Virus record (IMG/VR): IMGVR_UViG_3300043398_000057
Length of the DNA: 64,000 nt
From: a virus
Strand: one strand, 5' to 3'
Shown here: positions 1,293 through 63,893 of the stretch, in pieces
How the letters are laid out: each line of letters begins with the position of its first letter
Position numbering within the stretch: the first letter of the stretch is position 1
Program-made: the position numbers and the translations under genes
Notes under the pieces: generated by a model
Database searches by the model: none
Seen by the model: only the letters and a program-made list of their open reading frames with translations
What the model was told of the DNA's origin: nothing

Positions 1293-2356
1293 ATACATTC
1301 CTTTATTGTTTGCATGTTCTCAATTATAGCAGACTTTGGGTAAAATTTGAAACCATAATCGGCCATCGTTTTCCCTACATGATCAACCAAGAATGGAATA
1401 GCTTGAACTCTTCTTTTTGTTATTCTCATATCGAGTTTTCTCAGAATGTTCTAATCGACTCTTTTGACACCAATAAATTTTGCGAATCTTGTAGTATTGG
1501 CAAACGCATAAGTTTTACCATTGTAAGGGAATGTCCAAACGCCGGAAAAATTTTGTGTAGCCGAATACTCGGTGTATTCTCTTCTTGTAGTACCATCAAA
1601 AATATCAACGTATATCGGTTCATTGAAATTGTTGTTTTTGTATATTCTACCCGGAACCAAATTATCTGGTTGTGTACCTTTGTAATATCTAAAATTTTTC
1701 AAAGTTTCTGGACAGTGAAACCAATTTTTGTGACCGTTCATTATTCCTTTAAGTTTGATATTTCCTTGAAAGAAACCTTCCGGTACTATTTCCGAATCAG
1801 AGAAATATCTAACAACGCCATATCTATTACTATGAGCGGTCTTACCGGATAGTGATTTTGATTGTCTCTTTTTGAATTCATTACTTCTTCTATTTCCCAT
1901 ATTTGCCGGAACTAACTCACCTGTTGAGATTCTAGGATCATCTTTGAATACAAGAAAAGAATCGCCAGATAGGTTCTTTACTGTAACTTTTCCAACCATT
2001 TCTTTCTTGAGTAATTGTCTATGCTATTCAGCATCGTAACCATATAATTCAATTTCTTTCCAGCAATTTTCATCAACGCTTTTCCTCAAAATCTATTTCA
2101 CCGAATTGAGCATGAGTAAAGATTTTGTTATTTTGTATAGAAGTAAATGCGCTTTAGCATGATTGATTAAAGATAGCTTCGCGCAGTTCCAAGGATAATC
2201 GGAGAAACTTCTATATTCCGGGAAGATACTTTTTGGAAGTATGTGGTGCATATCCACAAATTCAGAACTTTCTTCCTTACTACAAAGTGCTAGATATTCA
2301 TCTATTAGATCGTTTTCACCAAACTTTGAAACTAGAGTTTTCTTCTAATCTATCAT
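1283..2356 (-). CDS. Free-standing HNH (Mob-like) homing endonuclease, 357 aa, with 4 in-frame TAG
   Basis: ATGA overlap with gp43A stop; HHILPKSIFPEY...WNCAKLSLINHAKAHLLLYK motif; TAG at 2345-47, 2093-95, 2024-26, 1451-53; ends TAA overlapping gp43B start; AT-rich. Confidence 0.82.
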
Positions 2357-3909
2357 ACAGTAACACCGCGCTTTTTAAGTTCATTTTTGATTTGAGTCTT
2401 CAAATCCTTGTACTTGAGCATTTCCTTCTTTGCAACTTTACGACCATCGAAAACCTTTTCAGTTTCTCGCGCAATGAATCCAAGTTCATCTTTTCTAAAC
2501 ATTGCACCGTTTGCCAACATGGCGTAATTCATTGACTTGAGGTATTCGCCCAAACCAGAGATGCCTTGTTTCAGAACCAATTCAACGTTGATTTTTGTGT
2601 TTTCATCAACCGGTCCATAACCATTGGCGATAGCCCATTCATTGAAATGTGCAGCTTTGAACATTCCAACAAAGGTTTCGGTTGAAAGGTTTGATGCCAT
2701 CATGATAGATGGATACTCGGATGTTGCATCAACCGAACAAGCCCACTTGTAAAGGCCCGGCTTAGGCGTCATCACATAACCACCTTCATATGGGTATGAT
2801 GGACCCTTTTCACCATCAATACAGACAAGTTTCTTATCGAAGAACAGTGTCGAAACCAGAAGGTTTTCCCAATACCGAACAGGGCTGAAAACATCCTCAA
2901 GATTTGACCGCATCACTTGAGCAAGGGTGAATGCCAAGTTGATAAGATTCAGCTTATCATCGATTTCCACACAACGAATAACGTCAATACGGTTGTACTT
3001 TACAAAGTGAGTGTCCCATGCTTTTTGATAGTTGTCGCGAAATGATGCGTATGGCATTTCCAGCTTACCAACACCCAGCACCACAGTTGAAATATGGTCG
3101 AGCTTGTAGGTTTCCTCTTTCTTGAGGACGAACTTCTTATAGAGTTCCATCAGGTCAAGACCGGCGATACCGTAAATGTCAAAATAGATGTTGGTTTCTT
3201 CTTCATCCCATTCAGACTTTTCCTCACGCTGGCGTACAACCCCAAATGGCGACAATTCATTAACAAATTCTTCACCAAGGATTTTGGAGATACGAACACA
3301 GAGATATGGAATATCGAACAACCGGCAACGCCATCCGGAATAGATATCAAGATTCAGAGTCTTCCAGTAGCGAATGAATTCGCGAAGCATGATATCTTCG
3401 CTTGTGTAATACTCGTAGTCAAACTCTTCATTACCGTAGTATGGACGACACGAAAACGTTTTCACCCGTTTGAAATTCTTGTCATAGATGGTGATCAACG
3501 TGATCATCTCAGCGGCAATCTTAGGTTCAGGGAACCCGGTCGAATACTCACCGACAGTCGTTTCAATGTCGATAAACCCGATTTTCAGGTCTTCGAAGTC
3601 ACCCGAATAGTTTTGAGGGAAGTTTCGGTTGATGAAGTCTTGCGCGGAATTCTTAACACCATAGAACTTCAGGTTCTCAACATTCCCATGAGATTCCTAG
3701 AACTTGTACTGATGGTTCGTGCTATCGAATTCGACGGGCACCAAGGGTTCACCCTTCATGGTCTTGAACTCAGACTTTTCATCACCACCACGCCGGTACA
3801 GAACAGGCTTTAGCTTTTGCTTGGTCTTGAATGGCTTACCGTCTTTGTAGCCACGAATGAGAATGTCACCCTTGTAAGTGTTCCAATATGTTGGATACAT
3901 GCTTGTCAT
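2353..3909 (-). CDS. 43A: DNA polymerase B N-terminal subunit (gp43A; exonuclease and motif A), 518 aa, with 1 in-frame TAG
   Basis: ORFs 3697-3975 and 2353-3507 share a frame joined by TAG at 3697-99 (YKF*ESHGNVENLKFYG); FIDIET ExoI, YKLDHI, YNRIDV, DATSEYPSIM motif A. Confidence 0.92.
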
Positions 3910-4070: not shown

Positions 4071-4475
4071 TCAGAGTTGTTGTTCAGTTGGTTCAGTGTA
4101 CACCAAGTCGAAGTGTTCCGCAAGTTCTTTCATACCGGTTTCAAACAATTCCTTGTTATGAACCTTTGGGTTCAGTTTGCCTGTATCGTTCATACCATCA
4201 TGAACAAATTGCAACCTTTCGAGAAAATCGATTTGTTCAAAATCGAAAAACAGTAAAAATGTCGGGTCGGTTTTGCCAATATGTGAAATTGAAGAGTCAT
4301 CTTTAATGTCCCACAAATTTGCGGTTTCATCATCGATGCAGTGCCCAACGACACACTTCAAACCGCCATCACCACGGTATGCACAAATATCAATCTTTTC
4401 AGACTTCACATAGTTCTGTGCACGGATTCCGAACAGTGCCTTGTCAAAGATTTCTTGATTGGTCAGTTTAGTCAT
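4071..4475 (-). CDS. Hypothetical early protein, paralog family 'NQEIFDKALFGIR' copy 1
   Basis: C.YRG..G.KC.VGHCI and LQ..HD motifs shared with 4492-4908, 8925-9311, 44139-44549. Confidence 0.8.
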   Translation of the reverse strand: MTKLTNQEIFDKALFGIRAQNYVKSEKIDICAYRGDGGLKCVVGHCIDDETANLWDIKDDSSISHIGKTDPTFLLFFDFEQIDFLERLQFVHDGMNDTGKLNPKVHNKELFETGMKELAEHFDLVYTEPTEQQL

Positions 4476-4491
4476 GTTGTCACGATCACTC

Positions 4492-4908
4492 TCAAAGTTG
4501 TTGAACGGGTTCAGTGTACACCAAATTGAATTCGTATGCAAGTTCGCTCATACGTTCTTCGAAGAGTTTACCGTTTTTCTCCAAAGGATCAAAAAATTCG
4601 TCATTGCTATGGCGCATATTATCGTGAATATGTTGAATTTTTCCCAGAAAATCAACCTGGGATTCCGAGAAATACTTCTTGAAAGATTCTGGAATTTCCT
4701 GGGAAACATATTCAATTGAAGTGTCAGATTCCAACAAATCCCACTTGTTAGCGGTTTCATCATCGATGCAATGACCCACAGCACATTTCAAATCATCACC
4801 ACCACGGTATGAACAGCCACCTTCAAATTTCCCGGATTGTTTGTAACCTTGTGCACGGATTCCGAACAGTGCCTTATCAAAGATTTCTTGATTTGTAAGT
4901 TGAGTCAT
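4492..4908 (-). CDS. Hypothetical early protein, paralog family copy 2
   Basis: Tandem paralog of 4071-4475. Confidence 0.8.
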   Translation of the reverse strand: MTQLTNQEIFDKALFGIRAQGYKQSGKFEGGCSYRGGDDLKCAVGHCIDDETANKWDLLESDTSIEYVSQEIPESFKKYFSESQVDFLGKIQHIHDNMRHSNDEFFDPLEKNGKLFEERMSELAYEFNLVYTEPVQQL

Positions 4909-8924: not shown

Positions 8925-9311
8925 TTATTCGGTTGTTTCAGGTTCGGATGCAGTGTACACCAAACCAAACATTTGTGCAATGTGTTTCATGTAAGTTTCG
9001 AAGTCTTCAACGCTATCTCGCAAAATGCAGTCATGAGCAGTCTGCAAAAATCCTAACAGGTTGATTTGATATGGTTCGAAATGTTTCTTGAAATTGTTGA
9101 AGTCTACCATGTAAATGTAGTCAAGACCATTTTTACCTTTGAAAAATTCGTCCCACAAAATCGCAGTTTCATCATCAATGCAATGTCCAACTGCACACTT
9201 GGTACCGTTTTCACCACGGTATGCGCAACCAAAGTCGCTAACTGATCGTTGGTAACCTTGACCACGAATGCCGAACAGTGCCTTGTCAAAGATTTCTTGA
9301 TTGGTGAACAT
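8925..9311 (-). CDS. Hypothetical early protein, paralog family copy 3
   Basis: NQEIFDKALFGIR...CAYRGENGTKCAVGHCI. Confidence 0.8.
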   Translation of the reverse strand: MFTNQEIFDKALFGIRGQGYQRSVSDFGCAYRGENGTKCAVGHCIDDETAILWDEFFKGKNGLDYIYMVDFNNFKKHFEPYQINLLGFLQTAHDCILRDSVEDFETYMKHIAQMFGLVYTASEPETTE

Positions 9312-12737: not shown

Positions 12738-14198
12738 TTACAGAGTTGCGCGAACTCGCTTGACGGCTTCCTTAAAGTTGCCATCACGAATATACGGTTC
12801 GGGATTATAGTCATTCATAGCGTAATACAAGATTTCGACATTCTCCCATAGAGGACCGACTTCTTCATAGTGTGCAAAAGTCTTGTATTCACCGGTCACA
12901 CAATTCATGTAAAGCGTTTGAATACCACGCTTCGATTCTTTGCCGGGATCGGTGATAGGACTCTTGTAAATGTTCTTTTCAACACGATCAACAACCACAA
13001 ACGATTGCTTCATGGCAACCTTGAGCCAGTCACGATCACATGCTTGCAGCAGAGCGCCACCCATACCGAAGACGATGTTTTCCGAAGACCAATTAGCATC
13101 CTTCAGAATCTGAAGAATTTTATTGATGCTTTGCATGTTCACACCGTCACCTTGCAGAACACGGATGCAGTCGGGAAGAACCTTGTAACCCTTACTGTTG
13201 ATGGTGTAGCCGAAACCTTCACCCAAAATTTCAAGAATCTTGGGCAAGATCACACGCGCATCACCAGAGTCGGGGCGGACAACAAAACGACCACCAGACT
13301 TGATGATTCGATCCTTGAACACGGTTGCAACACGTTCAGTGAAACGATACACATTAAAGGTATCAGCAACCGCCGAAACGATACCACCCTCACGCTCAAG
13401 CAGACTGACCATCATTTCGAGTGCGTCAATGTCTTCCTTGTTTTCACAGTCACTGTTTGCGCAAGTGACAGAGTGTTCAGAGGCGAGAACGCTGAAAGCG
13501 GGCATGGATGCATCATCTTCTTCATCCAGACCGTAATAGTCATACAAGTGAGTGATTGCTTGCATGGTATCGGTACCGTTGAAACTCAGCAAGTGACCGG
13601 AACCACCACGACCGGCAGTTTCAACCGAAGATGCGCCACGGAAACCGAAATCATGCAGTGCAAAATCCAACCCACCCATACGGTCATCATCAACGGTTTC
13701 TTGCCAGAACTGACCAATGTTCTGGCGGCACTGATACGACAGGCTTGCAACCGTGATAGGATACCAGATGTTCAGCAGCAGAGGTTCAACATAGGAAACA
13801 ACCCATGCGAAATCGGGGTGGGTGTTGGAAACACCAATCAGAGAATTCTTCAGAGGAATGACAGAACCTTCCTTTGCACCAGTGATGGTTATCGGAAGAT
13901 AACCATTGAACTCGGTCACGATTCGCTTCCAACCTTCATAGTTGAATGCACCGGGCTTCAGGTGACGATCAGCAAAACGCTTGGCACGTTCAACATCTCG
14001 CATGGTGACAGGCTTGCTCAGGTACTTCTTCACCGTGTAAACGATATCCCAAACAACACTTTGTTCGATACCAACGGTATCACCACGACTCTCGATGTAA
14101 GAGAATGCATAGGTAGTGTTTGCAGGTTCCATCTTCCAGTGACCAACCTTGTAGGAATCGGTCAGCAGGGGCAGAACATCAGAGAGAAAATCAGACAT
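12738..14198 (-). CDS. nadV: Nicotinamide phosphoribosyltransferase (NAMPT)
   Basis: TDSYKVGH, LHDFGFRG, ASEHS, VRPDSGD, QGDG, FGMGGALLQ motifs. Confidence 0.95.
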   Translation of the reverse strand: MSDFLSDVLPLLTDSYKVGHWKMEPANTTYAFSYIESRGDTVGIEQSVVWDIVYTVKKYLSKPVTMRDVERAKRFADRHLKPGAFNYEGWKRIVTEFNGYLPITITGAKEGSVIPLKNSLIGVSNTHPDFAWVVSYVEPLLLNIWYPITVASLSYQCRQNIGQFWQETVDDDRMGGLDFALHDFGFRGASSVETAGRGGSGHLLSFNGTDTMQAITHLYDYYGLDEEDDASMPAFSVLASEHSVTCANSDCENKEDIDALEMMVSLLEREGGIVSAVADTFNVYRFTERVATVFKDRIIKSGGRFVVRPDSGDARVILPKILEILGEGFGYTINSKGYKVLPDCIRVLQGDGVNMQSINKILQILKDANWSSENIVFGMGGALLQACDRDWLKVAMKQSFVVVDRVEKNIYKSPITDPGKESKRGIQTLYMNCVTGEYKTFAHYEEVGPLWENVEILYYAMNDYNPEPYIRDGNFKEAVKRVRATL

Positions 14199-14223
14199 TT
14201 GAAACTCCTTCAAATTGAGGTTG

Positions 14224-14253
14224 ATGTTTACTTGGGTCTATCCCGTTCAACAT
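14224..14253 (-). promoter_or_regulatory. 5'-UTR structured motif upstream of nadV
   Basis: AUGUU-GAACGGGAUAGACCCAAGUA-AACAU, just downstream of a TTGCAC/TGCTACAAT promoter; 20-nt core identical to 15374-15393. Confidence 0.7.
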
Positions 14254-14292
14254 GTTGAGATTGTAGCACCCTTTGAACCCGGGTGCAATAGG

Positions 14293-15348
14293 TTATTTGA
14301 TGCGAGAACGCAACGTTTCGATGATGCTGAAGTGATCTTCGAAAATCTTGTGACTGTTTTCGATGATTTCAGCAAATGAAATCCAACGTGCACCGTAGGT
14401 TTCAGTTGGGCAACCCTTGATTTTGGGCAGACGATTTTCACCAACAAGGTTGAAAATGTATGCGTGAGTGATCGTTCGGCCACGGGTAGAACGCAACGGG
14501 TGATCAAAAACTTCGGAACTCACCAACGAACCGCGCATGACCTTTTCAGGCACACCAATGTTGGTTTCTTCATAAAGTTCCTTGATACAGTTGTCAAAAA
14601 TCTTGATATTCTGTTCAAGGAACCCACCCGGAAGTGCGTATTGACCCTTACCGGTGCTTGCCGAACGCTTGACCATCAGGATGTGACCATTACACACAAC
14701 CACAGCGTCAGTGGTGACAAAGGTGGGTGCATATGGCGCGTTGTTCCACGATTCTTTGTAAGCCTTGACAAGTAGATATTCATCAACCATTGCGGCTTCA
14801 TCACTGATGGACCAAAGATCGGTCAAACTCCATGCATCGGCATAGTGAACCTTACCAGACTTGATCAGATTTTGAAATTCCGTGTAATTGGAAAACAACG
14901 CATCACGGACACGGGTTCCATCGATATCTTGATTGTTTGGAATGTGCATGAAATCAAACCCGAAGATTCGCAGGTAGTAGGTTGTTTCATCCTTATCGGA
15001 ACCAACCACAACCACATCTTTGGGATTGTAGGTCATGTTTCGAGTTTCAAACCATTGACGAACAGTGCTTTGAATTTGTTGAACCCACTGCGCATCATTG
15101 TAGAGATAGTCTTGCGCAAACGACAACGTGAATTCATCACGGTTGTAACGACTTGTAAGCGCACGATCAATGATCTTCATGCGGATTTGGTGGGGAACCG
15201 GGTTTCGAATGCTTGGCGCAGAAAACGCAGAACCGACAACGATCAGAGTGTGATCAGCAGTTTTGTTGGCAGCTTCGAAAAGTTCAAAATGACCACTGTG
15301 AGGCAGTGGTTGAAAACGCCCAATGACTAGGGCCAGCTTGTATGACAT
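14293..15348 (-). CDS. Bifunctional NMN adenylyltransferase / ADP-ribose Nudix hydrolase (NadM-Nudix)
   Basis: GRFQP.PHSGH, DGTRVR, ALPGGF...IKELYEET Nudix box, RSTRGRTITHA, FEDH. Confidence 0.95.
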   Translation of the reverse strand: MSYKLALVIGRFQPLPHSGHFELFEAANKTADHTLIVVGSAFSAPSIRNPVPHQIRMKIIDRALTSRYNRDEFTLSFAQDYLYNDAQWVQQIQSTVRQWFETRNMTYNPKDVVVVGSDKDETTYYLRIFGFDFMHIPNNQDIDGTRVRDALFSNYTEFQNLIKSGKVHYADAWSLTDLWSISDEAAMVDEYLLVKAYKESWNNAPYAPTFVTTDAVVVCNGHILMVKRSASTGKGQYALPGGFLEQNIKIFDNCIKELYEETNIGVPEKVMRGSLVSSEVFDHPLRSTRGRTITHAYIFNLVGENRLPKIKGCPTETYGARWISFAEIIENSHKIFEDHFSIIETLRSRIK

Positions 15349-46615: not shown

Positions 46616-46616
46616 T

Positions 46617-47990: not shown

Positions 47991-48054
47991 GAGTGTCCTC
48001 AAAGTTGTAGATGCATCACTGTACCACAACCACCACCCAAGTTTTTGTTAGGGT

Positions 48055-50526: not shown

Positions 50527-50536
50527 CAAAACCCCT

Positions 50537-51769
50537 TTACTTGCCAAGTGACTCTTTAGAACACTCGACAATCATATCATGTTGATTACCGATGATCTTG
50601 TGACGAATAGCGGTCACAAGATACTTGCCGGAATACTTATCGTCAATGATGCGAGACTTGTTACCATCATCAATTGATGCATTTTTAGGCATCGTAACAT
50701 TTATAACGTTACCGACTTTCAAATCTGTTCGACCGAATACTTCAATCACAATTCGGTGTGCCATGATCGATTGCAACAGTGTATCGCGTTTCTGAATAGC
50801 ACTCTTCGCATCAACAAAGAATTCGCCCAAGTATTTGCTTGACTTGGTTACAAACGAAATCTTGGCGTTGGAACCAGCAACAACATTCTTGTCAAAAAGT
50901 GGCGAACTTTCCAGATGTGGATAAGTGTTGAACTCTTTGAAATAGTCATGAGTATTGGTTGTGATTCTCTTTGTGGTTGTGTCAAACTCATGCAACTTTG
51001 TTGAAAACATACCATTTGACAAACGCTTGAGAAAATCAAAGTCTTCAATGAACTGAATGTTTTTGATCACCGACAAACGTTCAGTAGTGTTCAGCGAAGT
51101 TCCCGAAGAGTAATTTTCCGCAGACACATCCGAGTCGATATAACTGTGCTTTGCGGGTTGCTTCAAAAGAGTTTCGACGCTAGAAAATTCATAAGACTTG
51201 TTCGACTCAAAAAACAAGTATGATGGTCTGCCAACAGAATTCTTAGAAAGTGATGCGATGTGGTTGATCAGCTTGAACGGTTCCCAATATGGTGAAATGA
51301 ATGTCACTGAGTTGTCTGACGGTTCAATGTAAATTTGCCTTTTCGATGCAAGACCGTATGACGCTGTGAAAATGTCCTTGATCACATCAGAAGTTTTACC
51401 CTTGAATGAGCGACTGATTTTTCTGTTCGCATCATTGATCATTTCGGGAGAACAAAAGTGCAAAACATAGTTCTGCTTTCTTGGCTTTGGCTTTGTTCGG
51501 TTAGAGATTCTGTAAACGAAAAAATCCCTTGAGATTGTTTCCCCGTTGATACCACGAATCGAAAAACTCAAAGTCTCGTTACCCATGATGGGCAGAACGG
51601 AAATGAGGTTTTTGGTGTCTTCAATCAAAATGGAACCCGTCATACAGTTTGCAAACATGTCTTCATAGACATTGATTTCAACAAAAGAATCAGTCAGGTC
51701 AAACCTACCACCGTTGACAGTGATAAGGTCAAGTTTCTCAATATCAACTTTTCCGGGAAAATTGTTCAT
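50537..51769 (-). CDS. Baseplate hub/tail protein (gp27/GpD-like)
   Basis: INVYEDMF..CMTGSILIED, LPIMGNE, YLFFE, YSGKYLVTAIRH; lies between gp53 and gp5. Confidence 0.75.
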   Translation of the reverse strand: MNNFPGKVDIEKLDLITVNGGRFDLTDSFVEINVYEDMFANCMTGSILIEDTKNLISVLPIMGNETLSFSIRGINGETISRDFFVYRISNRTKPKPRKQNYVLHFCSPEMINDANRKISRSFKGKTSDVIKDIFTASYGLASKRQIYIEPSDNSVTFISPYWEPFKLINHIASLSKNSVGRPSYLFFESNKSYEFSSVETLLKQPAKHSYIDSDVSAENYSSGTSLNTTERLSVIKNIQFIEDFDFLKRLSNGMFSTKLHEFDTTTKRITTNTHDYFKEFNTYPHLESSPLFDKNVVAGSNAKISFVTKSSKYLGEFFVDAKSAIQKRDTLLQSIMAHRIVIEVFGRTDLKVGNVINVTMPKNASIDDGNKSRIIDDKYSGKYLVTAIRHKIIGNQHDMIVECSKESLGK

Positions 51770-52248
51770 ACTGCGCTCAAGGCTTTCTCAACTTCAGCAA
51801 TAAACGATGGAAGAACCGTTTCCGCCAAGATTCGGATTCTTTTCTTTTCGTCATTGACCTTCGTTTCATATTCAATGTTTGTGATAGGTACAACAAACTC
51901 TGAAGTATTGTCCTGAACTTCGCGTCCATCAAGTTCGTAATGATGAACACCGTTAATGTCATCATACTTTGATGCGACATATTCAAGCAAAACATCTGAA
52001 CTCATGGGCCAATCAAAGTATGGATCACGAATGTCATTCACAACCAAAATAACCCAATTCAGGTTCGGGTCTTTATAAAACTTGAATGCAACATCATGAG
52101 GGGTTTCACCGTCAGCGATTTCATAAATCTGATACAGAGACTTCTTCGCCTTGATTTGCTTTGACAGTTCTACTTGGGCAATAACATCACGGATGACGAT
52201 TGCCTTACCATCAAACTCATATTGAATGAATGGAAGATACTCAAGCAT
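51766..52248 (-). CDS. 53: Baseplate wedge subunit gp53
   Basis: GETPHDVAFKFY...WVILVVNDI.DPYFDWP, HHYE, YE...NDEKKRI. Confidence 0.9.
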   Translation of the reverse strand: MLEYLPFIQYEFDGKAIVIRDVIAQVELSKQIKAKKSLYQIYEIADGETPHDVAFKFYKDPNLNWVILVVNDIRDPYFDWPMSSDVLLEYVASKYDDINGVHHYELDGREVQDNTSEFVVPITNIEYETKVNDEKKRIRILAETVLPSFIAEVEKALSAV

Positions 52249-52249
52249 T

Positions 52250-53110
52250 TTAATACCCCGATCCTGTTGTGCTACCATCAATCATTGAACGGTCAATAGT
52301 TTCAACTTCAGTGAAAGTAAGGTTCATGGTGCAATCATTGAAATTTCCGTCACTGTGCATGTACATTGCATTGTTTGGTGAATAGTCAACCGAAACTTCA
52401 GTCAGTGCGCAAGGCAAAATCTTTGGAATCGATGTGATTTCATTTTTGCCCGTGAAGAACTGAATCTGAAAGAATGCAGGGAACAACCAAAATGCGTTAC
52501 CGGGCGAAATGGAAGGCGCGGCATAGAAACGGAACGTCTTGATGATTTCTTGAACGTCACGATGTTCCTTGGCATTCTTGGGGTTGAACGTCCAGTTGAA
52601 CGTGAATGTTCTGAAGTTGATACCACGGAAGAACTGTTCTTTGAAATCTCGTTCAGTCTGACGAATCGCACCCTTGATAAAGCCACTAGCCTTTGCGCTG
52701 TTGATCGCTTTGCGCTTGATGTAGTCTTGGGTCACACCTTCAACGCCACCTTCTCTAAAGGCTTCCAAAGCCTTTGCAATGCCGGTCTGTGATTCCTGAG
52801 TCCATTCCATGTTCTGATTGAACTGAATGTTAGGCGGAATGGGCAAAAAGATGGAACGGTCAATCTGTTCAACCCCTTGACGGGTTTTGAAACTGAATTC
52901 GAATTTTGACTTCGCATCAGGCGCGGTAACATCGGGATCAATAGATTTGTCCTTGACCTATGAACCATCGCTTGCAACAGTGGTCAATCGCTTGGATTCT
53001 CCCAAGAAAGAATTTGACTTTGTATCGAGAATCAAAATTCTCGTGTATGGAACACCTTCAGTATTTGACAGGCTGTTCTATTCATTTGGGTAAGCTAGGA
53101 TTTTGCTCAT
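52250..53110 (-). CDS. 48: Baseplate tail-tube cap gp48-like, 286 aa, TAG at codons 11 and 51
   Basis: ILAYPNE*N..., IFLPIP, FRGINFRTFTFNWTFNPKN..E, L.F.EVE. Confidence 0.85.
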
Positions 53111-53117
53111 TCTTGGT

Positions 53118-53151
53118 TGTTCCTAAATAGGTATCACGTTATTTAGGAACA
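53118..53151. promoter_or_regulatory. Overlapping divergent late-type promoters (CTAAATA on each strand) in a 12-bp inverted repeat
   Basis: TGTTCCTAAATA ... TATTTAGGAACA between divergent gp48 and GIY-YIG genes; resembles the T4 TATAAATA late promoter. Confidence 0.7.
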
Positions 53152-53155
53152 TGAT

Positions 53156-53599
53156 ATGACATGGATTTTCAACGATAAAGAAATGGCATCACTCGAAGAT
53201 TTCGAGGAAGGTACCATCGGTTTCATCTACATGATCACAAACATTGAAACCGGTAGGAAATATATCGGTAAGAAGATTCTGACAGGTGTTCGGAAGGTTC
53301 AGAGAGTTGTGAAACTCAAAACAACCGGCGAAAAGAAAAAGAAAAGTGTTCGCAAGACTGTTGAAAGTGATTGGTTGACCTATTACGGTTCATCACCAGA
53401 ACTTGCAGCCGATGTTGAAAAGTTTGGCCGCGAAATCTTCAAAAGAGAAATCATTCACCTTTGCCGTAGCAAGGCCGAAATGAGCTATCTCGAAACCAGA
53501 GAAATCTTTACCCATGATTGTCTTTTGAAACCGGAAGAATACTACAACGGATGGGTAACTTGTCGCGTCACGCGCGCACACCTTAAGAATCTTCAATGA
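53156..53599 (+). CDS. GIY-YIG nuclease-family protein
   Basis: GFIYMITNIETGRKYIGKK...ESDW.TYYGSS...FKREII...YYN; the only convincing plus-strand gene. Confidence 0.85.
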   Translation: MTWIFNDKEMASLEDFEEGTIGFIYMITNIETGRKYIGKKILTGVRKVQRVVKLKTTGEKKKKSVRKTVESDWLTYYGSSPELAADVEKFGREIFKREIIHLCRSKAEMSYLETREIFTHDCLLKPEEYYNGWVTCRVTRAHLKNLQ

Positions 53600-53625
53600 G
53601 AAAGGGGCCAAACGGCCCCTTTCTT

Positions 53626-53925
53626 TTACTTGAGCAAAACGTAAAGTGTTGCAGACATTGCACTTGCAGAATGCCACCAATAAGCGGTATGGTCTTGCCA
53701 TCCCTTAGTTTTAATCTCTCGGTAGCCTTGATAGTGCAGGATGTAATACACGATACACGAAAACATCAAACCGATTGGATCATAGTTTGCCAGAAGAATC
53801 AACATCGTGGCGAAAAACATCACGGGCCATGGATTCTTGAACTGTTGAAAGTATGTGAGAACCGCCGCGCCAAGAAATACCAACCATGAGGTGACAAGGG
53901 GGAAATAGTAAAGAATTTCAATCAT
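53626..53925 (-). CDS. Hypothetical membrane protein
   Basis: Hydrophobic segments; downstream of a promoter cassette. Confidence 0.6.
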   Translation of the reverse strand: MIEILYYFPLVTSWLVFLGAAVLTYFQQFKNPWPVMFFATMLILLANYDPIGLMFSCIVYYILHYQGYREIKTKGWQDHTAYWWHSASAMSATLYVLLK

Positions 53926-54006
53926 TGGATACCTTTCATTGTATCGGTAATTTATCGGTGAATGAATTATGGCCCCGAAGGGCCATCTTGTCAAGCGACT
54001 TCGAAA

Positions 54007-54945
54007 TTATTCTTCGGGGTAGTCGTGATTACGCAACAGTTGGCGAAGTTGAACCCAACGCCGGAAGTTACCGCTACACGGAATCGAGAACAGACCCTTA
54101 GAATCTCGCTTGATGTGGGTCACACCAGCATCAGTGAAATCCTGAATCGGGGTGCCCTGGTGTTCAGCGGGTGAGCTATGCGAACGTTCTTCAGTGCGCA
54201 CCGGTTGATCAAGGTGCAGCTTCTGAGCAATGTCATCAGCCTTTTCAACAGAAGTGTCGTGCTTTCGATAAGAAGTCTGTGCGCAACATGACATGGAAAT
54301 CTTCTTCGCGGTTTCCAAATCGATAACGTCACCACGTTCATCAAAGAAAACTTGCTTACCTGCAACGAATTGTTGATTCACATATGGAAGGTGCCATTGA
54401 CCGGGCTCAAGCAGAACCGGTTCAGAATTGTTCAAAGCGGTTTCCATGAGGTGCGCCAGATAGTTAAATTCCGGTTGCGCGGCATCATGATTGCGAAGCC
54501 AGAAAAAGTTCTTCCAATCGGTTGCGGTCAGAACCATCTTTTGCATCATGATGGGTTCCAAGAATCGCCCGGCAAGTTGCTTGTGGAACTTCTTCTGATC
54601 AAGAATGGTGGCAGCGTCGATACAGTTGCCAACAAGCACACGCCAAATAGCTTTCACTTCTTCAAGTTCTTCACCTTCAAACTGATCATCGGCACTCATG
54701 CCGGGCTTGTTGATACCCCAAAAGTTAGGTTCAAAGTAATTGCCATTTCGAATGTTTTCAATTTGCTTGGCAAGCGGAATTGCGCGAGAACTCGAACCAT
54801 TCTTAGAAACCATCTTGTGCGTGTTCTATTCGGCCAAAATCGGGCGAGGGAACTCGACTTCGTATGTAACCAGCGGAACGCCAATACGCGAAATCGAATG
54901 AGCAATGATGTTTACAGAAGTCTTGTTAGGATGAAAGTTACGCAA
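54007..54945 (-). CDS. thyX: Flavin-dependent thymidylate synthase, TAG at codon 40
   Basis: TTG start with GGAG RBS; FPRPILAE*NTHKMVSKNGSSSRAIP; HKQLAGRFLEP, FFWLRNH..AQPE, HSSPAEHQ. Confidence 0.9.
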
Positions 54946-55187
54946 TGTAATACTCCATAAATGTTGATGACGAACTATTGTACCACAGAAATGCAATGGG
55001 GCAACTAGTCCCTTAACCAGTTGCCCCAAGGGTCTTACCAATACTTCCTGCGAAGAAAAGCCTATGACGACGATCACGGGGTTAAAATGGCCTTGTGTGT
55101 ATCAACCCATCCTACACACAATTTTTTAGCGATGTTGCGCGTTACAACAAGGGAAAACGTTGCACTAAGCGTTGCTGGCCTTTCTTG

Positions 55188-55264
55188 TGGTCTTCCCGGT
55201 AGGATTCGAACCTACGACCCTCTGCTCCCAAAGCAGATGCGCTACCAGACTGCGCTACGGAAAG
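55188..55264 (-). tRNA. tRNA-Pro(UGG)
   Basis: Cloverleaf, anticodon loop TT TGG GA, encoded CCA. Confidence 0.93.
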
Positions 55265-55282
55265 ACAAAACTTAAAACTTGT

Positions 55283-55367
55283 TGGTACCCCCGGTCGGAA
55301 TCGAACCGACACGCCTTTCGGCGGCGCTTTTAGAGAACGCTGTGTCTACCAATTTCACCACAGGGGC
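55283..55367 (-). tRNA. Amber-decoding tRNA(CUA) on a tRNA-Leu scaffold
   Basis: GCCCCTG TGGTGAAATTGGTAGACAC A GCGTT CT CTA AA AGCGC, long variable arm, GTCGGTTCGATTCCGAC, CGGGGGT A CCA; anticodon at 55331-55333. Confidence 0.93.
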
Positions 55368-55394
55368 ACACGAACTCTATTGTACCAGAAATTT

Positions 55395-55468
55395 TGGTGC
55401 CCATGCACGGTATCGAACCGCATTCTATGGCTTACAAAACCATTGCATCACCTTAATGCTTCACGGGC
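55395..55468 (-). tRNA. tRNA-Thr(UGU)
   Basis: ATGGT TT TGT AA GCCAT anticodon arm, CCA. Confidence 0.85.
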
Positions 55469-55500
55469 GTCCTAAACTTTTCACATTATACCACATAACT

Positions 55501-55591
55501 TGGCGGGGTGTGTGAGATTCGAACTCACGGAACGCTATTAACGTTCGCCGGTTTTCAAGACCGGTGCATTAAACCACTCTGCCAACACCCC
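55501..55591 (-). tRNA. tRNA-Ser(UGA)
   Basis: CCGGT CT TGA AA ACCGG, long variable arm, G73, CCA. Confidence 0.93.
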
Positions 55592-55770
55592 ATCAAATTG
55601 AATTTGCGGAACTTCCCAAAAACTTCGACGCCTTTCGGCTCCATCTAAGGGAACGTTTTAACTCGTGTTCCATCGAGATTAGCTACATTTTTGTTACCGG
55701 AGTCTAACCCGATTTCTTCGTACAGACTGCAACCATGTCTGTACTATCTAGGGACCACCTAGAACGTCAC

Positions 55771-55845
55771 TGGCTCCGAAGGTAGGGATCGAACCTACGA
55801 CCAATTGATTAACAGTCAACTGCACTACCGCTGTGCTACTTCGGA
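55771..55845 (-). tRNA. tRNA-Asn(GUU)
   Basis: GTTGA CT GTT AA TCAAT, CCA. Confidence 0.93.
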
Positions 55846-55853
55846 ATTGTTTT

Positions 55854-56366
55854 TCACTTTTTTAAGAAGTAACCTCTTTTCGGAACCTCAATATCAAAAT
55901 GTTGACACCACTTTTTCACGGTTACGTCTGACACGTTGTAAATGCTTGCTATTTTTGTCATTGGCATTTTCCAAACTATATCAGAAAGTTCTTCTTTTGT
56001 TATTTGAAACTTTACTCTATCATCACTCGCACATTTTGGTGAACAATACTTTTGTTCACTTTTGTTAGTTACCTCGAAAGAAACTTTGCACTTTGTACAT
56101 GCACGATATTCTTTGATTACGTTCTTATCTTCTCTATGGTGTAACGCTGCATGTTCCGAGTTTGTCATTAACATCAAATTGCTAATATGATTGTTTTTCC
56201 TATTTCTATCAATATGATGTACACACTCGTCTGGTAGCAACAGTCTACCAATATGCTAACACATTACATAAACATGTTCCATGACTTTACCTGCACCGTT
56301 AGCATAAATGCTTTCCGGATTATAGCAATACATGTAACCTGTTCCAACATCTTCTCTAAAAATCAT
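55854..56366 (-). CDS. HNH homing endonuclease in the tRNA cluster, TAG at codon 37
   Basis: GYMYCY...EHVYVMC*HIGR...ECVHHIDRNRKNNHISNL...EHAALH; C-terminal Zn finger and HTH. Confidence 0.85.
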
Positions 56367-56369
56367 TTT

Positions 56370-56457
56370 TGGACTCCCGTGGAGGTATCGAACCTCTCGA
56401 CTTCCATCCTGCGGTTTAATGTCGTCGGCTTAGAAGACCGATGCGGGGACACGGGAG
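56370..56457 (-). ncRNA. Atypical tRNA-like RNA (UCU anticodon arm, no D arm, 8/4 acceptor/T stems)
   Basis: CTCCCGTG/CACGGGAG-T-CCA; TCGGT CTTCTAA GCCGA; GAGG TTCGATA CCTC. Confidence 0.7.
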
Positions 56458-56478
56458 GTCTAAAAACTTAAAACTTGT

Positions 56479-56563
56479 TGGTGCCCCGGGTCGGACTCGA
56501 ACCGACACTCCTTTCGGAACCGGATTTTGAATCCGGTGCGTCTACCAATTTCACCACCGGGGC
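56479..56563 (-). tRNA. tRNA-Leu(CAA)
   Basis: CCGGA TT CAA AA TCCGG, long variable arm, A73, CCA. Confidence 0.94.
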
Positions 56564-57171
56564 AACGTTTACATGATACATCTGTTTGTTGGCGTCCAAC
56601 ACACTCAGATTATACCATGTTTCGCCGGAATTTCACCGGCTCGTCAGAACGTTTATTCCTTAGACTCCTTAACGACCAGAATCATGTTTTGCAGAACCTT
56701 TGCGCCAACTAGAACACCACTACCAAAGTCGAAAACTTCGCCAGAACCCGAAGTTGCAACTTCGTATGCCTTGATGATCCTGCCGGTAACTTCAGCAGTT
56801 GCTGAATCCCAGGTCAAGATACTTTGACCATTGTACGAACTCACCAAGGTGATGTTGAACAGCTTTTCTTGTGCACTGGTTTCTTGAACTTGTTCGGTCA
56901 TTTTTTTGTCCTTATCTAAAAATGTTGTCAGAATGTAATTATACCACAGTTATTCACTATCCCATGCCGAAAGCATGTCAAAATCTTCATCATCAAGCGA
57001 TTCATCAAGAATTTGATCGGGGCGCTTCTTGTGCTTGGTTGCTTCCTTTTCGTCTTGTTGACGAATGATGAACGAGGGCTTGGGCGACTTGTCGGCCTTG
57101 GTATCGAACTTGTTTTGCATTTCTTTCTCGGTTGATAGTTACTGGTTACGAAATTCAATGTTTGTAGTGTA

Positions 57172-59450
57172 TCACACTTTTTCGAGTGCTGTATGAAGAT
57201 TTGCACACAGTGATTCGACATAGTAAGTAGCATGTCCAATCTTCACACCAAAGGCCCAAACAGTGCACGGTGAGTCAAGTTCGGGGCAACCGTATGCCTT
57301 AGGGTCTTTCTTGATGATAGATGCCGGAATCTTGACAGTATTCCATTGTCCTTCACCCTGAGAATTTGCGGCATCAACCGCTTCCTTCAGGCTTGCGCCG
57401 GTCAATGCACGGTATGTCTTCACCCATTCAACCTTGGATTGTACCACAGTTTCAACAAAAACGTTGTCCTTGGGTGAAGGGGTTTCTTCACCAACCAAAG
57501 TAACCAGTTCTCGATAGAAATCCAAAGTTTCGATGTTCAGTTCTGAAACCTTACGGTTGCTATAAATTGCCAAGATTTCTTTGGCGACCGAATCGGGGAT
57601 GTTGATGTTAGGCATGTTAAAACTCTTTGAAAACTTGTTAAGGTGAAGACAGTGTATCAACATCTTTGAACACTGTCAAGAACTTTTTAGCAATCCTTCA
57701 TGGAATTGATGCGGTACTTGTTGATCCACTTTGTGACAACCTTATCACAACGCTTCAGCACAGCGTCAAGTTCGGTGTAGTTTTCGGCGCGAACCTTGAA
57801 ATAGACTTCGCCATAAACATTGTAATCATGAACACGCGAAAACTTGTCATTAAGGAATTCGACATCAAGCATATCCTTGAGAATTTCCGAATAAGTGACC
57901 GGATACTTCCCACTACTGTACATCTTGAACCGTGGATTGTTTTCTTCGGCTTGCAGCAAAACAAATTCCAGCCGTTGATCCCACTTGGTGCAAACGTAGA
58001 ATTCGGCATAAACCGCATCACGCTTGATAGAGTTGAATTCGGTTGTTTGGGCGGAAGTCATTTTTCAGTCCAGTGCTTGTTTCAATGACTGTATTGTGAG
58101 CGAAGTCAAAAACTTTGTCAACAATACCCTCAAAAAATTTATGGCTTTTGTTTCAGTTCTTTGAGTTGATCGCGAAGAGTTTCCACGAACTTTGTCCGCG
58201 ATTCCTCGGTCATTCCTTCAGAACCGAAAATGGATTCATAGTCATCCATCATTTCCTGAATTTTACCGGTTCCGCCAGTGTACTTGACACACATCATGGT
58301 GTATCCAGCCATAGAGAAAAGCGCCATTGCTTGAAACTGATCCATCGACACGGTAACAGTCTTTTGGTCGGTATCGAAATTTTTCATATCATGCCTTTGG
58401 TTTGAACATGGTTGCGAGGTCATAACTGCGAATCATATCGTCAGTCATTGCGGAAATGGTTTCATGAGACAGTCCATCGCGAATCATGAACGGTTCGCAA
58501 ATCTTTTCACCACCGATTTTTGTGATAGTGATGATCACTCCCGACGCCATCATGTGATCAACACTCGCTTTCTTCAAATCCCTAGCGGCAGTGTGGTAAA
58601 CACTGGCCTGTTGAGACTTGGCTTCAAGCAACTTTTGTTCCAACTGCTTGACTTGTTGTTCAAGTTGCTTGGTCTTGGAAATCTTGGTCATGATGAAACT
58701 CTTTGAAAACTTGTTAAGGTGAAGACAGTGTAGCAACATCTTTGAACACTGTCAACACATTTCTTCAAAATTTGAAAATTGCGGTAACCCGCTGATTCTT
58801 ACTCATGTAGCCAGTGTCAATGATGTTTCCATCAATCACAGCGAAGATGTGAACACGAATGTGAACAGCGTAACGTCCATTCTTCAACATCGGCAAAACA
58901 TTTTCAATCGTTCGCCCGGCGATGTACTCGATTTCGTCACGCTTGTACATTGTCAGATGCTTGAAACTGTTTGCGGCATTGGTTGTACCAACAATGTGTG
59001 TCAGTTTCATACCACACCATTCGGAAATTCTCACGATGCCGGGCAAATGCATACCGGTACCGTTTCTTTTGTAATCACATTTTTCAATCGCAAAACGTTC
59101 GATTGCCATATAGTCAATACCCGTGGCGTTTGCCATGGCACGGATGACACAATCGTTACGAATCGTTTCGAAACGAACACCACCACGGGTGGGTTGAATG
59201 TACTTTTTGGCGATGTAGTTCATGATCACAGACCCTTACTTGCTGCACGAACACATTGTTCATGGTAAGCAGAAAACGACCAATCAAACATTTCCTTGGT
59301 CTTGGAGTCAAACACAATGGCCCAAACATCACAGAGTGCCGTGTAACAGGTGTTGCGAATGATTTGAGAACGGTAGTCTGGTGAACCCATGGTTCGAACC
59401 GAAGCATTCATGATAGTTGCGCCAAGTTTGATGGCGTTGTTCTTTGTCAT
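57172..59450 (-). CDS. Cluster of small hypothetical early genes (57172, 57687, 58139, 58389, 58765, 59226)
   Basis: Co-oriented ORFs behind sigma70-type promoters; all end in TAA or TGA. Confidence 0.6.
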
Positions 59451-59555
59451 GATTTGTCTCGATGTGAAGTGTTGCGATGGAATGAATTATGGCCCCGAAG
59501 GGCCATCTTGTCAACACCATTTTAGTGGTGTGGTCATTGTTGTCTTTTTACAACA

Positions 59556-62500
59556 TCAATTGTTTTTCTTGTACTGCCTACCGAAGACGTAGTTCGCGTA
59601 TTCCTTGTAGCCTTGACCCTTCTTGATCATCAAATCTTCGCCATGAGTCATGATGTTGAACGATGTTGAGTCATTCTCAATTCTGACAACAGGGCCGCGA
59701 CTCGTTCTATACACTTCAACATCAGGGTTCTTAAACATGCCGTCTTCATATTCACGATAGTCAATAACACCATCATTTGTTGGAATCATACCATCAGTGA
59801 AAATGAATTCGATCACATGTTTAGGAGTTTGATACTTCATGGTGGACTCGTCAATTTGAACCGATTCGGTAAGCGAGTCGATGCTTGTTTGCAACCATTC
59901 ACGCAGTTTCTTAGTTGACGTTGTACGAACCTTGAAAACCTTCACAATCCGAATCATCATCTGTGGCGCGTTCACCGCGTATTCGGGCGAAACCAAACGA
60001 CTCGGATAACCATTTGGCAAACCAGTGTTACCACCATACCACCAAGTCTTACCAATTTCACTATTGGAAGTTGGCTCATAAACTTCAAGTTGGAACAAAT
60101 AACCAATTTCGTCATATGTTCGCGCGTAACCATGATCCGAAATGTACTGTTGTGACTTGTCGGCAGTTTGGGTGTAGTAAATGCCGTTGACTTTCGCTGT
60201 ACCTTCCTGTGCCTTAACTTTTACATCATTGACCTTATAGTTAGCAAGATAATAACCCTTTTTGTAGGCGTCATCAAGGCTTGGGAAAGGATCATTTATA
60301 GCACTGATTTCAACCGCTGGCTTAGTGTCATCAAATCGTCCGAATCTGAGATTCTTACATTCCAACATTTTACCAGCAACCTTAATCGGCCCGCCACTCT
60401 TCAAAAGTTTGAAACCGTATCGAGTGATGAAAGTTGCAGCGCGAGAACCGCAACCATGGAAAACATCAGTTCGCAATTTGTACTGAACATTGTTGTCGGC
60501 CCAAATTTTCAACATTGCGGCAATCATCTTTTCATCACTGATTTTCGATTCAAAAATGTCTTCAACAATCATCGCAAAGTCACCATGCTTACCATTTGAA
60601 CGATCAGCAAGATATTTTGTGGCTTCGATCCTATCCTTCAGCGATGGGTTTGCTGGAGTAATCATCTGAGGTTTAACGTAAGGCGTGAAATTATCAAAAT
60701 CGATGGTATCGGGATCAACACCTTCCATGATCGAATCTGTGTCAACTTCATTAACCCACATCAACTTATGAATAAGACCGGCTTCCAGTGGTTCATTAGG
60801 AACAATCGGGCTACCTTCATTGTAAGACTTTGCAACACGTTCACCAGCGGCAAAGTAAATGACCTTCTTCTTAGCTTCTGGTGGAAGCGACTTCATCGCT
60901 TCAGTAAACCCAGGTTCATCATTTCGCGCAGCAAAGAATCTGTAAGCACTTTCGATAACTTTCTCTTTCTTCAGGTTTCGAGACTTGTCATATTGACGGA
61001 ACGCCAATTCGATAGTTTTTTGATCACTGATAAGACTTGCAAATTCCGTGATATCAACAGCTTGTGAACCAGTCGGGGAGAAAATCTTTTGACCGACCGA
61101 CAATGAGTTCATCGCGATATTGTAGAGTTCGGGGAAAAGTTGAGCCAACTTTGTCGCAACATCAGAGTCCATGATAGACAGTGATGGAACGTTTTTGATG
61201 TTTGGTTCGGTACCGTAATTCAATTGGGCATCTTTCCAAAGATTCACAATTCGTTCGGCATCGGCCATACTACCGGCACTATTGAGCAAAATACCTGAGA
61301 ATGACTGATTGATTTGATCAGCGTAGTTTTCAAGAATGAATTCTCTAAACTTCTTTGAAATTTTGCTGGCGACACGGAACAAAGAACCGATGAAAATTTC
61401 ATGAACGTTCGTTCTATAACCATCGAGAAGTTTGTCAAACAGTGCAGGATGAACATCAACGTAATGATCCAATGAGGCGTTCAACAAATCGAACGAATCG
61501 TGCACTTCGGCATGGCGAATCATGGAAGTACAGGTTTCAGTTTCCAAGATTTTATGCGCAACGTTTGTGTGAATGTTGACAACCGAATCATGGAAGTACA
61601 GCGCGAAGTTGCCATAGTTTTTGTTGTAGAACGCCGAAATACACCAGTCAACGAATTTTTCGTTAGTTTTACGGTATTCAATGATTTGAGCGATTGCTTG
61701 GAAATGAGTATCAGAAAATTTGTCGGCAGGGTGAATATCAGCAATCAGTCTAACAAGATTGGCAAGGTTTGGCGGAATGCATGAGGTGTCATAGTACCTC
61801 GAATAACTATCAAACTGTTGCAAAAATGTTTTATACTTTGATGCGTCATCAAGATTGAACGAATTTGCATCCTTTTCATATTTTGCAAAAATCTCGTTCA
61901 GTGAACCACTTTTGTATTTTTCCAGTTTGAAAGAAATTGGAACAAGTTTGTAGTGACCCAAGTATTCCGTGCTATCAAAATTCTTCAGTGCTTCCATGAG
62001 TGCATCATATTCAGCATCATCAGAAACCACATACTGATCATATGTGTCCATGGCAAGTGCCAAAATAACATCGGGGGTTTTCTCGAATGTAAATTTGTCA
62101 TCGCCTATCACACCAACGGGGAAGAACTGCTTACAAGCTCTGAACGCGCACACGCTACCACCACTAAGATGGGGTTTGAATTCCAACTCGCCGCTGCGCA
62201 TAGAATAGTAGCTGTAATTCGAAAAATCGTCCTTACCCGTGTTCGTCAGCGTAGAACCCGGGAAAATCTCAGAGAAGTTGACCAACATCCAACGTTGGGC
62301 GGAATTGATTGTACCAAAGTCAACACTTGATGGAGCGTTGAAAATATACTGAGCCAGCATCAACCAAAAGAATTCATTACCGGTTGCCTTTTTGTAGAAA
62401 CCAGAATTCACCAAACCCTTCATGAAAGAATCAAACCGTGCGCCGGAATCGGATTCATCCACAACAAATCTGACGGTGTTTTTCGGATATTGTTCAAAAG

Positions 62501-63893
62501 CATGGAATGCATAATCATATGCACTCTTCGAACTGTAATAGTATGACGAACGATAGAAATACTTGTTGACCCCCTTTGAGTTTCGTTCTGTTGAAATGTT
62601 GTACTCATATTTTGTTGCCTTGAAATATGCATCAAAAAACTTCTTGGCATTATCCTTATCGGCGTTTGCGATGGCATCATTGATTTTGTAAGAGTATTTG
62701 TACATGTCATCATTAGCGTTGATGTATTCCAAAAACTCTGTAACATCAACACGCTTGGCAACCTTATCAAATTCACCATTGATCAAGTTGACAAACATGT
62801 TCTTCATTTGCAATGGCGTAAACGATGATGGCGCGGCCAAAGTCTTACTACCCTTTGGTGCACGACCGCGTTTTGCCGGTGCTGTAGCAACCGGTGCCGG
62901 TGAGGGAGTTGCAACCGGTGCCACAACCGGTGCCACAACAGGTGCAACAGGTGCCACAACCGGTGCAGCAACAGGCGCGGGAGTAGGTGCAGGCGTTGCA
63001 ACGCGAGACACAAACGGTTGCGAGAATTGCGAAACGGGCGTAACCAATGGTTGAACAATTGGACGAACCACGGGCTGAACAACGGGTGCTGTAGGCACAA
63101 CAGTGGCAACAGGTTGAACAATTGGACGGGGCGGGGTCACAACCGGTGCTGGAACTGGTGTGGGTGCCACAACAGGTGCCGGTGCTGGAACTGGTGTGGG
63201 TGCCACAACAGGTGCCGGTGCTGGCGTGGGCGCAGGGGTTGCAACCGGCGCAGGCGCGGGCGGAGTCACACCAGCTTTAGGTGTACCCTTGGGACCAAGT
63301 TCACCAACAATCTTAGGGTCATACGAATCGAAACCGTTTGAGCCAACATAGTGAGTTGCAAGCCGCTTAAATTCAGCAGCAACCTTTTGACGAGCCTTAG
63401 AGTAGCCTTGAATGTCTTGCCAAACAAGAACACCAACTTGTTGAATGCTGTATGTGCCGGTGCGCCACTTGGTGAACTGATTCTTCAGAATCGTCGATGG
63501 TTTGAAATCCGGATCACGCAACATTTCCTTTGCAAGACCGCGCAAAATAGTTTCATCAATTTGACTTGACGACAAGTTGCCTTGCTTGATCTTGGCGAAC
63601 AGAAGCGTGAACTTGTCGGCCAGAACCCGACTCATAACACCACCTTCAACAGCCAGCTTCACCGACAGTGAAATGTCATTGTTTGCGTCACCAATGTTGT
63701 CAAACCGAATCGACTTGTCATTGATGAAATAGTTCTTAACAGCGTGACCACCTTGAGTATCACCAATGGCATACAGACCAAGAATGCCAAAAATGTTGAT
63801 AATCAGTGCATCAGACTATTGTTGCTTGTCGGCAACCAATGCATCCTTTTCTTGGGCATTGGTGTAAAAGGTGTTTTCATACAAACGTTTCAT
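59556..63893 (-). CDS. Large Alt-like putative virion ADP-ribosyltransferase, 1445 aa, TAG at codon 26
   Basis: MKRLYEN start is in frame through KQQ*SDAL; C-terminal VFHGCGS...GF...GIYYT..ADKSQQY...PEYAV (PARP-like H-Y-E); TAAGTA upstream. Confidence 0.72.
62870..63275 (-). repeat. Pro/Ala/Val/Thr low-complexity coding repeats
   Basis: Tandem PAPAPVVAPTPV and APVV units within the large ORF. Confidence 0.85.

Follow-up and report, generated by a model that had tools for sequence, protein, structure and literature searches.

Phages of standard-code hosts, among them crAss-like, Lak and Agate phages, can reassign a stop codon, either TAG to glutamine (code 15) or TGA to tryptophan (code 4) (Borges et al. 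bioRxiv 10.1101/2021.08.26.457843; PMC7886860; PMC9523058; PMC11210395), and recoding as a control of late genes is already an established hypothesis. In E. coli, a leucine amber suppressor gates genes whose leucine codons have been changed to TAG; leucyl-tRNA synthetase (LeuRS) charges its tRNAs independently of the anticodon, and the suppressor competes with release factor 1 (RF1), read-through dropping with each amber that is added (PMC7969014). Selection against premature termination (drop-off) predicts that codons of this kind lie at the 5' ends of genes (PMC13271495). Here, we describe in-frame TAG codons in IMG/VR record IMGVR_UViG_3300043398_000057, a 64,000-nucleotide stretch (the window) of a 144,862-bp contig of a T4-like phage from a freshwater metagenome, with 43% G+C and nearly all genes on the minus strand. 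TAG appears to be read as leucine by a phage-encoded tRNA-Leu(CUA), and in most of the genes that carry it the codon lies close to the start. A preliminary description of the sequence had proposed that single early ambers form a translational gate on middle and late genes.

TAG as a leucine codon

Genes were called independently with TAG scored as neutral, so that frames were closed only by TAA or TGA; with such a caller a genuine TAG stop would surface as a distal TAG. This gave 17 in-frame TAGs in 104 window genes (18,717 codons), and an HNH endonuclease gene at 1283-2356 contained four more, for a total of 21 TAGs across 14 intact, conserved genes with homology running across the TAGs. All 13 positions given in the preliminary description were exact: the caller recovered 71/518, 6/96, 22/105, 22/112, 24/520, 40/144, 27/224, 16/823, 40/312 and 26/1445 (codon/gene length), together with codons 11 and 51 of the 286-codon gp48, and 37/170 was confirmed through the list of open reading frames (ORFs). 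Two genes with four TAGs each had been missed, the endolysin gene (37766-38380), inside the range then considered, and the HNH gene just outside it. TAG was also avoided as a stop, since none of the 104 window genes or of 33 genes from a relative requires one, with the possible exception of codon 199 of 204 in the endolysin.

Six tRNAs were found in the window, one of which has the anticodon CUA. This amber suppressor (55283-55367, minus strand; 85 nt; ARAGORN, Rfam) has a type II body, A73, an encoded CCA and A36-A37-A38. Its probable parent is tRNA-Leu(CAA) at 56479-56563 (minus strand), from which it differs at 16 of 85 positions and with which it shares an identical 16-nt trailer, and its closest phage matches carry the annotation tRNA-Leu. 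Comparison of the coding sequences points to the same amino acid. The TAG column of gp5 holds leucine in 107 of 119 homologues, that of a 1445-aa protein holds Val, Leu or Ile, and in a relative of ~80% identity TAG sites are paired with CTG, CTC or CTA; codon 89 of gp48 is TTG in the window and TAG in a 97% identical strain, a direct exchange of the two codons. Taken together, these comparisons provide good support for TAG being translated as leucine, probably by the phage tRNA-Leu(CUA). Code 15 was rejected, given that TAG aligns with leucine or other aliphatic residues and that the tRNA has the body of a tRNA-Leu. Pyrrolysine decoding was likewise rejected: the 'Pyl' label assigned by ARAGORN reflects the anticodon only, and the 85-nt body copies tRNA-Leu(CAA).

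The tRNA cluster lies 1.1-2.5 kb downstream of a sigma70 promoter (57679), and no clear intrinsic terminator separates the two; the cluster is therefore probably transcribed early. Among the window proteins, neither a release-factor GGQ motif nor class I synthetase motifs were present, and the tRNA(CUA) pattern was absent from the GTDB genomes searched. Directly before the HNH gene of the cluster is a tRNA-like stretch (56372-56465, minus strand) with a T-arm-like GTTCGA motif, which was called by neither ARAGORN nor Rfam. An RNA ligase-family gene (phrog_562; 32409-33557, minus strand) of the early region, which is free of TAG, could serve tRNA repair.

It is extremely unlikely that the TAGs are real stops, errors or the result of mis-called starts, with the genes beginning further downstream. 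In-frame alternative starts do occur 5-20 codons past some TAGs, but without a good ribosome-binding site (RBS). Homologues or profiles cover the sequence upstream of the TAG in gp43A and in the genes for the 105-, 112-, 520-, 144-, 823-, 312-, 170-, 286- and 1445-aa proteins, and for a 96-aa gene the relative's orthologue supports upstream coding; homology that is conserved before the TAGs and continues through them refutes this explanation for 13 of 14 genes. For a ClpP-like gene of 224 codons, the start of which is the least certain, the evidence for upstream coding is a good RBS. In addition, a cognate tRNA is present, and strains 95-99% identical from an independent sample retain every TAG checked, which shows that the TAGs are not assembly errors. 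River contigs aligned to 44001-64000 were short, with their listed variants away from TAG sites, and so uninformative on TAGs.

Position of TAG within genes

The preliminary description had held that TAG placement is non-random, and this was borne out in the window and again in a diverged relative. When the TAGs of each gene were reassigned at random among its own leucine sites, the 11 genes with a single TAG had a mean relative position of 0.13 against an expected 0.51 (p = 2e-5), and the effect held over all 14 TAG genes (p = 2.4e-4). In non-early genes, 14 TAGs fell within 2,610 codons at or before codon 75 and three within the 6,777 codons beyond (p = 4e-6). As a fraction of TAG plus TTG, TAG made up 0.21 in 5' regions and 0.02 distally, TTG being the commoner of the two even near gene starts. 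Abortive products would be ~7-fold shorter than under random placement.

These figures make a generic 5' bias towards rare codons or low structure, unrelated to termination, a very improbable cause. Many bacteria do have rare codons concentrated near gene starts (PMC13072593), and CTA in the window is enriched 1.43-fold in codons 2-50. TAG, however, is enriched 2.6-fold there and no other codon more than 1.43-fold, the equally rare TTA (16 uses) standing at 0.91-fold and ATA at 0.37-fold. The median TAG is at codon 32, beyond the initiation region, and the bias disappears in the endolysin and the endonucleases (p = 0.72).

The last of these results reflects two positional regimes. Pooled, seven of ten TAGs in endolysin and homing endonuclease genes are distal, as against none of 18 in all other genes (p = 1e-4); outside this class the furthest exception is codon 89 of gp48 in the 97% strain. 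The share of leucine codons written as TAG also differs, with 10 of 85 in the endolysin and homing endonucleases and 12 of 1,235 in the other window genes. As Borges et al. found the same two gene classes to be the most recoded, the split is not wholly post hoc. The earlier statement that downstream codons contain no TAG is thus true for most genes, but in the endolysin TAGs reach codon 199 of 204 and in the HNH gene codon 302 of 357. The notion of exactly one amber per gene did not survive: scattering 14 proximal TAGs at random over the non-early genes would occupy 11.7 genes on average, compared with 13 observed (p = 0.25). As per-gene counts fit a Poisson distribution and relatives have two or three TAGs in a gene, one amber per gene is no design feature. 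Neither a special +4 context nor reinitiation signals were evident after TAGs in the window.

The relative is represented by four contigs (L001, L018, L021 and L022) from SRR30451274, with 76-87% nucleotide identity to the window. Its nine TAGs lie in gp43 (71/852), UvsX (32 and 56), gp46 (43/568), the orthologues of the 105- and 96-aa genes (47 and 50/98; 32/95), the 520-aa gene (24/520) and a homing endonuclease (277/321). Eight of the nine are at or before codon 71 (8 in 2,195 codons versus 1 in 4,331; p = 0.001); the within-gene test gave p = 0.013 for all sites and p = 0.11 for those not common with the window. Sites turn over between the two phages. Two are held in common, in gp43 and the 520-aa gene (site retention 2/5), and the 96- and 105-aa genes have TAG in both phages at different sites. 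Of five window TAG genes covered in the relative, four have TAG and one, for dCMP deaminase, has lost it, while gp46 has gained one. Gene-level overlap of lineage-specific TAGs gave p = 0.06-0.18, and non-leucine partners at TAG sites were not in excess (p = 0.10-0.44); as tests of positive selection, both are weak.

Searches with gp5, gp46 and the 1445-aa protein against viral and metagenome contigs returned no relatives, NAMPT and tRNA-pattern matches were to unrelated phages, and no cultured close relative was found, the best match to gp43A being 37%. Distant T4-like loci (gp46/gp5 34-54% similar) gave no convincing sign of recoding. At unrelated standard-code T4-like loci (L002-L005, L011 and L013), almost no gene ends with TAG; depletion of TAG stops has been proposed to precede recoding.

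TAG-bearing genes, neighbours and promoters

All window genes located below lie on the minus strand. The N-half of a split DNA polymerase, gp43A (2353-3909), has its TAG at codon 71 of 518 (3697-3699), the site also used in the relative's unsplit 852-aa gp43. Between gp43A and gp43B, the free-standing HNH homing endonuclease gene (1283-2356) has TAGs at codons 4, 88, 111 and 302 of 357; no RBS hairpin was found for it. This gene overlaps both neighbours and adjoins an ORF-less group I intron (925-1175, minus strand; Rfam RF00028, 68.6 bits), which breaks gp43B at an NSL/YG motif and the splicing of which restores an open frame. As gp43 of the relative is unsplit and intron-less, the split, the HNH gene and the intron are recent. 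Collaborative homing by the HNH gene and the intron is possible. An intron-encoded HNH gene with gp43A as exon 1 was ruled out, because gp43 is split and the intron lies in gp43B. In the relative, UvsX (L022, 3179-5578) contains an intein interrupted in turn by a free-standing homing endonuclease ORF, which suggests trans-splicing of UvsX.

Further along the window, the 96-aa gene (15404-15694) has TAG at codon 6, where the relative has CTA and carries TAG at its own codon 32, and the gene for a 105-aa MazG-like pyrophosphohydrolase (15947-16264) has TAG at codon 22, where the relative has ATG, with TAGs at 47 and 50. The adjoining gp46 (16264-17967) is TAG-free; codon 43, TAG in the relative, is CTG in the window. 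The dATP/dGTP diphosphohydrolase gene (112 aa; 21561-21899) has TAG at codon 22, retained in a 98% strain, and that for a 520-aa Zn-ribbon protein (phrog_1745; 24694-26256) at codon 24, identical in the relative. In the dCMP deaminase gene (144 aa; 26574-27008) the TAG at codon 40 is retained in a 99% strain and is ATT in the relative; the ClpP-like protease gene (224 aa; 27688-28362) has TAG at codon 27. The GH19 endolysin gene has TAGs at codons 48, 84, 125 and 199, all four retained in a 95% strain.

Among the remaining TAG genes, gp5, the baseplate hub (823 aa; 48055-50526), has TAG at codon 16, and gp48, the tail-tube cap (286 aa; 52250-53110), at codons 11 and 51, with a third at codon 89 in the 97% strain. 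The ThyX gene (312 aa; 54007-54945) has TAG at codon 40, and its product had no sequence match in PDB. The HNH endonuclease gene within the tRNA cluster (170 aa; 55854-56366) has TAG at codon 37; a river contig appears, on weak evidence, to omit 55817-56370, suggesting that this gene is mobile. The gene for the 1445-aa ART-like protein (59556-63893) has TAG at codon 26, and its homologues align from residue 1-5 with a hydrophobic residue at the TAG column. This protein belongs to a family of 276 distant homologues, the best of which have C-terminal PARP-like matches, and it is solely through these that the earlier label 'ART' is plausible; a stretch of the window copy near 62500-63200 is repetitive and rich in Ala, Pro and Val. 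The genes for gp33, gp47, RNase H, ligase, gp53, a 410-aa tail protein and SegE are free of TAG. So is an NAD salvage pair, NAMPT and NadM-Nudix (12738-15348), conserved in the relative. At least four small paralogous genes (4071-4475, 4492-4908, 8925-9311 and 44139-44549) have a common N-terminal motif (QEIFDKALFGIR).

Sixteen near-consensus sigma70 promoters are situated among small genes. In one recurring cassette, a GC hairpin occupies the whole 17-bp spacer that separates -35 from -10 (5975, 7566, 7911, 32390, 37761, 41093, 45805, 53994 and 59514, minus strand), and a second family lies at 32136, 57679 and 58755. Genes behind such cassettes had been described as free of TAG; TAG is indeed scarce there but not absent, with one of 30 genes within 1 kb carrying it compared with 13 of 74 elsewhere (p = 0.045). 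Depletion in early genes gave p = 3e-7 with hand-drawn early blocks and p = 0.09 from gene-order clustering alone. The T4 late consensus TATAAATA is absent from the window. A TAARTA motif, which occurs eight times against 28.6 expected, lies 32-45 nt before the genes for the 1445-aa protein, the endolysin, gp48 and SegE and 113 nt before gp5 (candidate late-promoter sites 38408-38413, 50634-50639, 53124-53129, 53140-53145 and 63933-63938), and four of these five genes carry TAG. The endolysin gene is the last of a sigma70 unit (promoters 39925 and 41093), and a 13-bp hairpin over its RBS (38384-38425, minus strand; fold z = -5.3), identical in the 95% strain L019, includes the candidate late motif TAAGTA at 38408-38413.

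Purging, gating and comparison with known systems

We give about an even chance to a reading in which distal TAGs are purged, 5' TAGs are tolerated and partly useful, and multi-amber repression of lytic and nuclease genes is selected. In a host of standard code, the phage tRNA-Leu(CUA), charged by host LeuRS, would compete with host RF1 at UAG. Suppression would be near zero at injection and climb over the first minutes, probably without ever becoming complete, as the tRNA cluster behind strong sigma70 promoters suggests. TAG would then be a conditional leucine codon whose permitted positions are set by selection against failed read-through. Purging would remove it from the genes expressed first and from the distal parts of replication, metabolism and virion genes, where failure would be most wasteful and could leave long, assembly-poisoning fragments; in the first ~70 codons it would be tolerated, failure there yielding a short peptide. 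Changes from TTG to TAG would produce the 5' TAGs, which turn over between relatives and would tie their genes to the tRNA, a gate in effect that imposes a brief delay and damps leaky early transcripts. In genes for the endolysin and homing endonucleases, whose premature products would be harmful, several scattered TAGs would accumulate and multiply the repression, and here the gate is probably selected, like the RBS hairpin on that endolysin. The preliminary description had offered purging as its alternative. In view of Poisson counts, scattered ambers in the lysis gene, a shifting gene set and TAG below parity with TTG, purging explains position at least as well as a switch.

Several points weigh against purging combined with tolerance. 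The counts cover 64 kb of a phage sequence of ~145 kb. Codon adaptation is no lower in genes with a TAG (p = 0.35-0.59), although TAGs should become rarer as expression rises if cost were the only factor. An essential endolysin with four TAGs also implies that read-through is fairly efficient late in infection, and this weakens the argument from distal cost. The different-site TAGs in two small genes and the two TAGs kept over ~20% divergence hint at positive selection, and relaxed selection by itself could also account for the endolysin's ratio of four TAG to six TTG.

Less probable is an evolved switch resembling bldA of Streptomyces, in which early TAGs are positively selected in particular replication, virion and lysis genes and keep these silent while the tRNA is still building up. 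The off state would be cheap because of the 5' position, and polarity or translational coupling would extend it to genes downstream. In its full form, which we regard as equally tentative, this would be a natural amber lock: key genes for replication, late transcription and the virion would be selected to keep one or more early TAGs, lytic genes would keep several, and the accumulation of one tRNA would time the early-to-late transition. Such a role would fit the retention of TAG while its site moves in the 96- and 105-aa genes, the sites common to both phages in gp43 and the 520-aa gene, the two TAGs in the relative's UvsX, the TAGs behind candidate late motifs, their scarcity behind early promoters and the 5' enrichment of UUA in Streptomyces (PMC13072593). 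However, per-gene counts are Poisson, gene-level overlap is not significant, TAG stays under TTG parity even at 5' ends, and no gate is present in gp33, gp47, RNase H, ligase, gp53, the 410-aa tail protein or SegE. The set of gated genes also differs between the two phages: in the relative gp46 is gated and dCMP deaminase is not. Of the proposed developmental switch, the dependence of TAG genes on the suppressor tRNA and the non-random placement stand; gp46, gp47, ligase, RNase H and gp53 are ungated as described, although gp46 is so in the window only, and the lysis gene carries four scattered ambers instead of a single early one. The positional bias of this phage is real and is replicated in the relative, and a switch function is plausible.

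A constant partial read-through with no role in timing seems unlikely. TAG would here be a weak codon throughout, at most a dosage attenuator, and early genes would lack it through very high expression or recent acquisition from standard-code phages. With the tRNA cluster behind early promoters and no clear terminator before it, any delay may be short, and low-copy products (gp5, gp48 and the endolysin) are found among the TAG genes. Yet no tRNA encoded by the phage can be present at injection, which means that all TAG genes are gated in effect; codon adaptation does not differ; and the hairpin that additionally locks the endolysin points to timing.

From its sequence, the phage would belong with stop-recoded phages carrying suppressor tRNAs, outside code 15. 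The word 'leucine' occurs in none of the stop-recoding papers cited above, no positional analysis was found in Borges et al., and no report of a phage with TAG as leucine or of this positional rule was found in the open literature searched. The phage bears on why stops are recoded, because hundreds of recoded codons make a role in timing difficult to test in crAss-like phages; with ~21 TAGs spread over 64 kb, a single tRNA, TTG as a synonymous escape codon and two clear positional regimes, such a role becomes testable codon by codon. There are consequences for annotation too: under code 11, gp5, gp43A and the endolysin are cut short, and under code 15 glutamine would be placed at conserved leucine sites.

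The phage has in common with stop-recoded phages a suppressor tRNA, in-frame stops in late genes and a proposed code switch, and in those analysed by Borges et al. lysis genes and an intron endonuclease are likewise the most recoded classes. It differs in that TAG is leucine rather than glutamine, in being a T4-like freshwater phage, in its strict 5' restriction and in the inclusion of replication and nucleotide genes. At ~1 per 900 codons its recoding is so sparse that a coding-density screen would probably miss it, and phages of this kind may be under-counted.

Control by bldA is defined by a tRNA-null phenotype. Like the Streptomyces bldA/TTA system (PMC13072593), the phage has one dedicated tRNA, a very rare 5'-enriched leucine codon and a dependent subset of genes; unlike bldA, it would act on a phage time scale, and its codon is a host stop, so that failure means termination by RF1 and not pausing. 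With E. coli supP and the synthetic 'leak dampener' (PMC7969014) it shares a leucine amber suppressor, an anticodon-blind LeuRS, leucine codons written as TAG and repression tuned by amber number. That circuit is engineered and inducer-controlled, and the phage may be its natural counterpart. In T4, lysozyme (gene e) and the homing endonuclease I-TevI are translationally silenced by RBS hairpins on long early transcripts (PMC3014915), and the phage endolysin similarly has an RBS hairpin; unlike T4, the phage adds ambers to the hairpin (endolysin) or perhaps replaces it with them (HNH). Finally, termination-prone codons near gene starts are what drop-off selection theory describes (PMC13271495). 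Such gradients are known as a subtle statistical trend, whereas the phage would be an extreme single-codon case and, if purging holds, would show with unusual clarity how selection against premature termination acts on a single codon.

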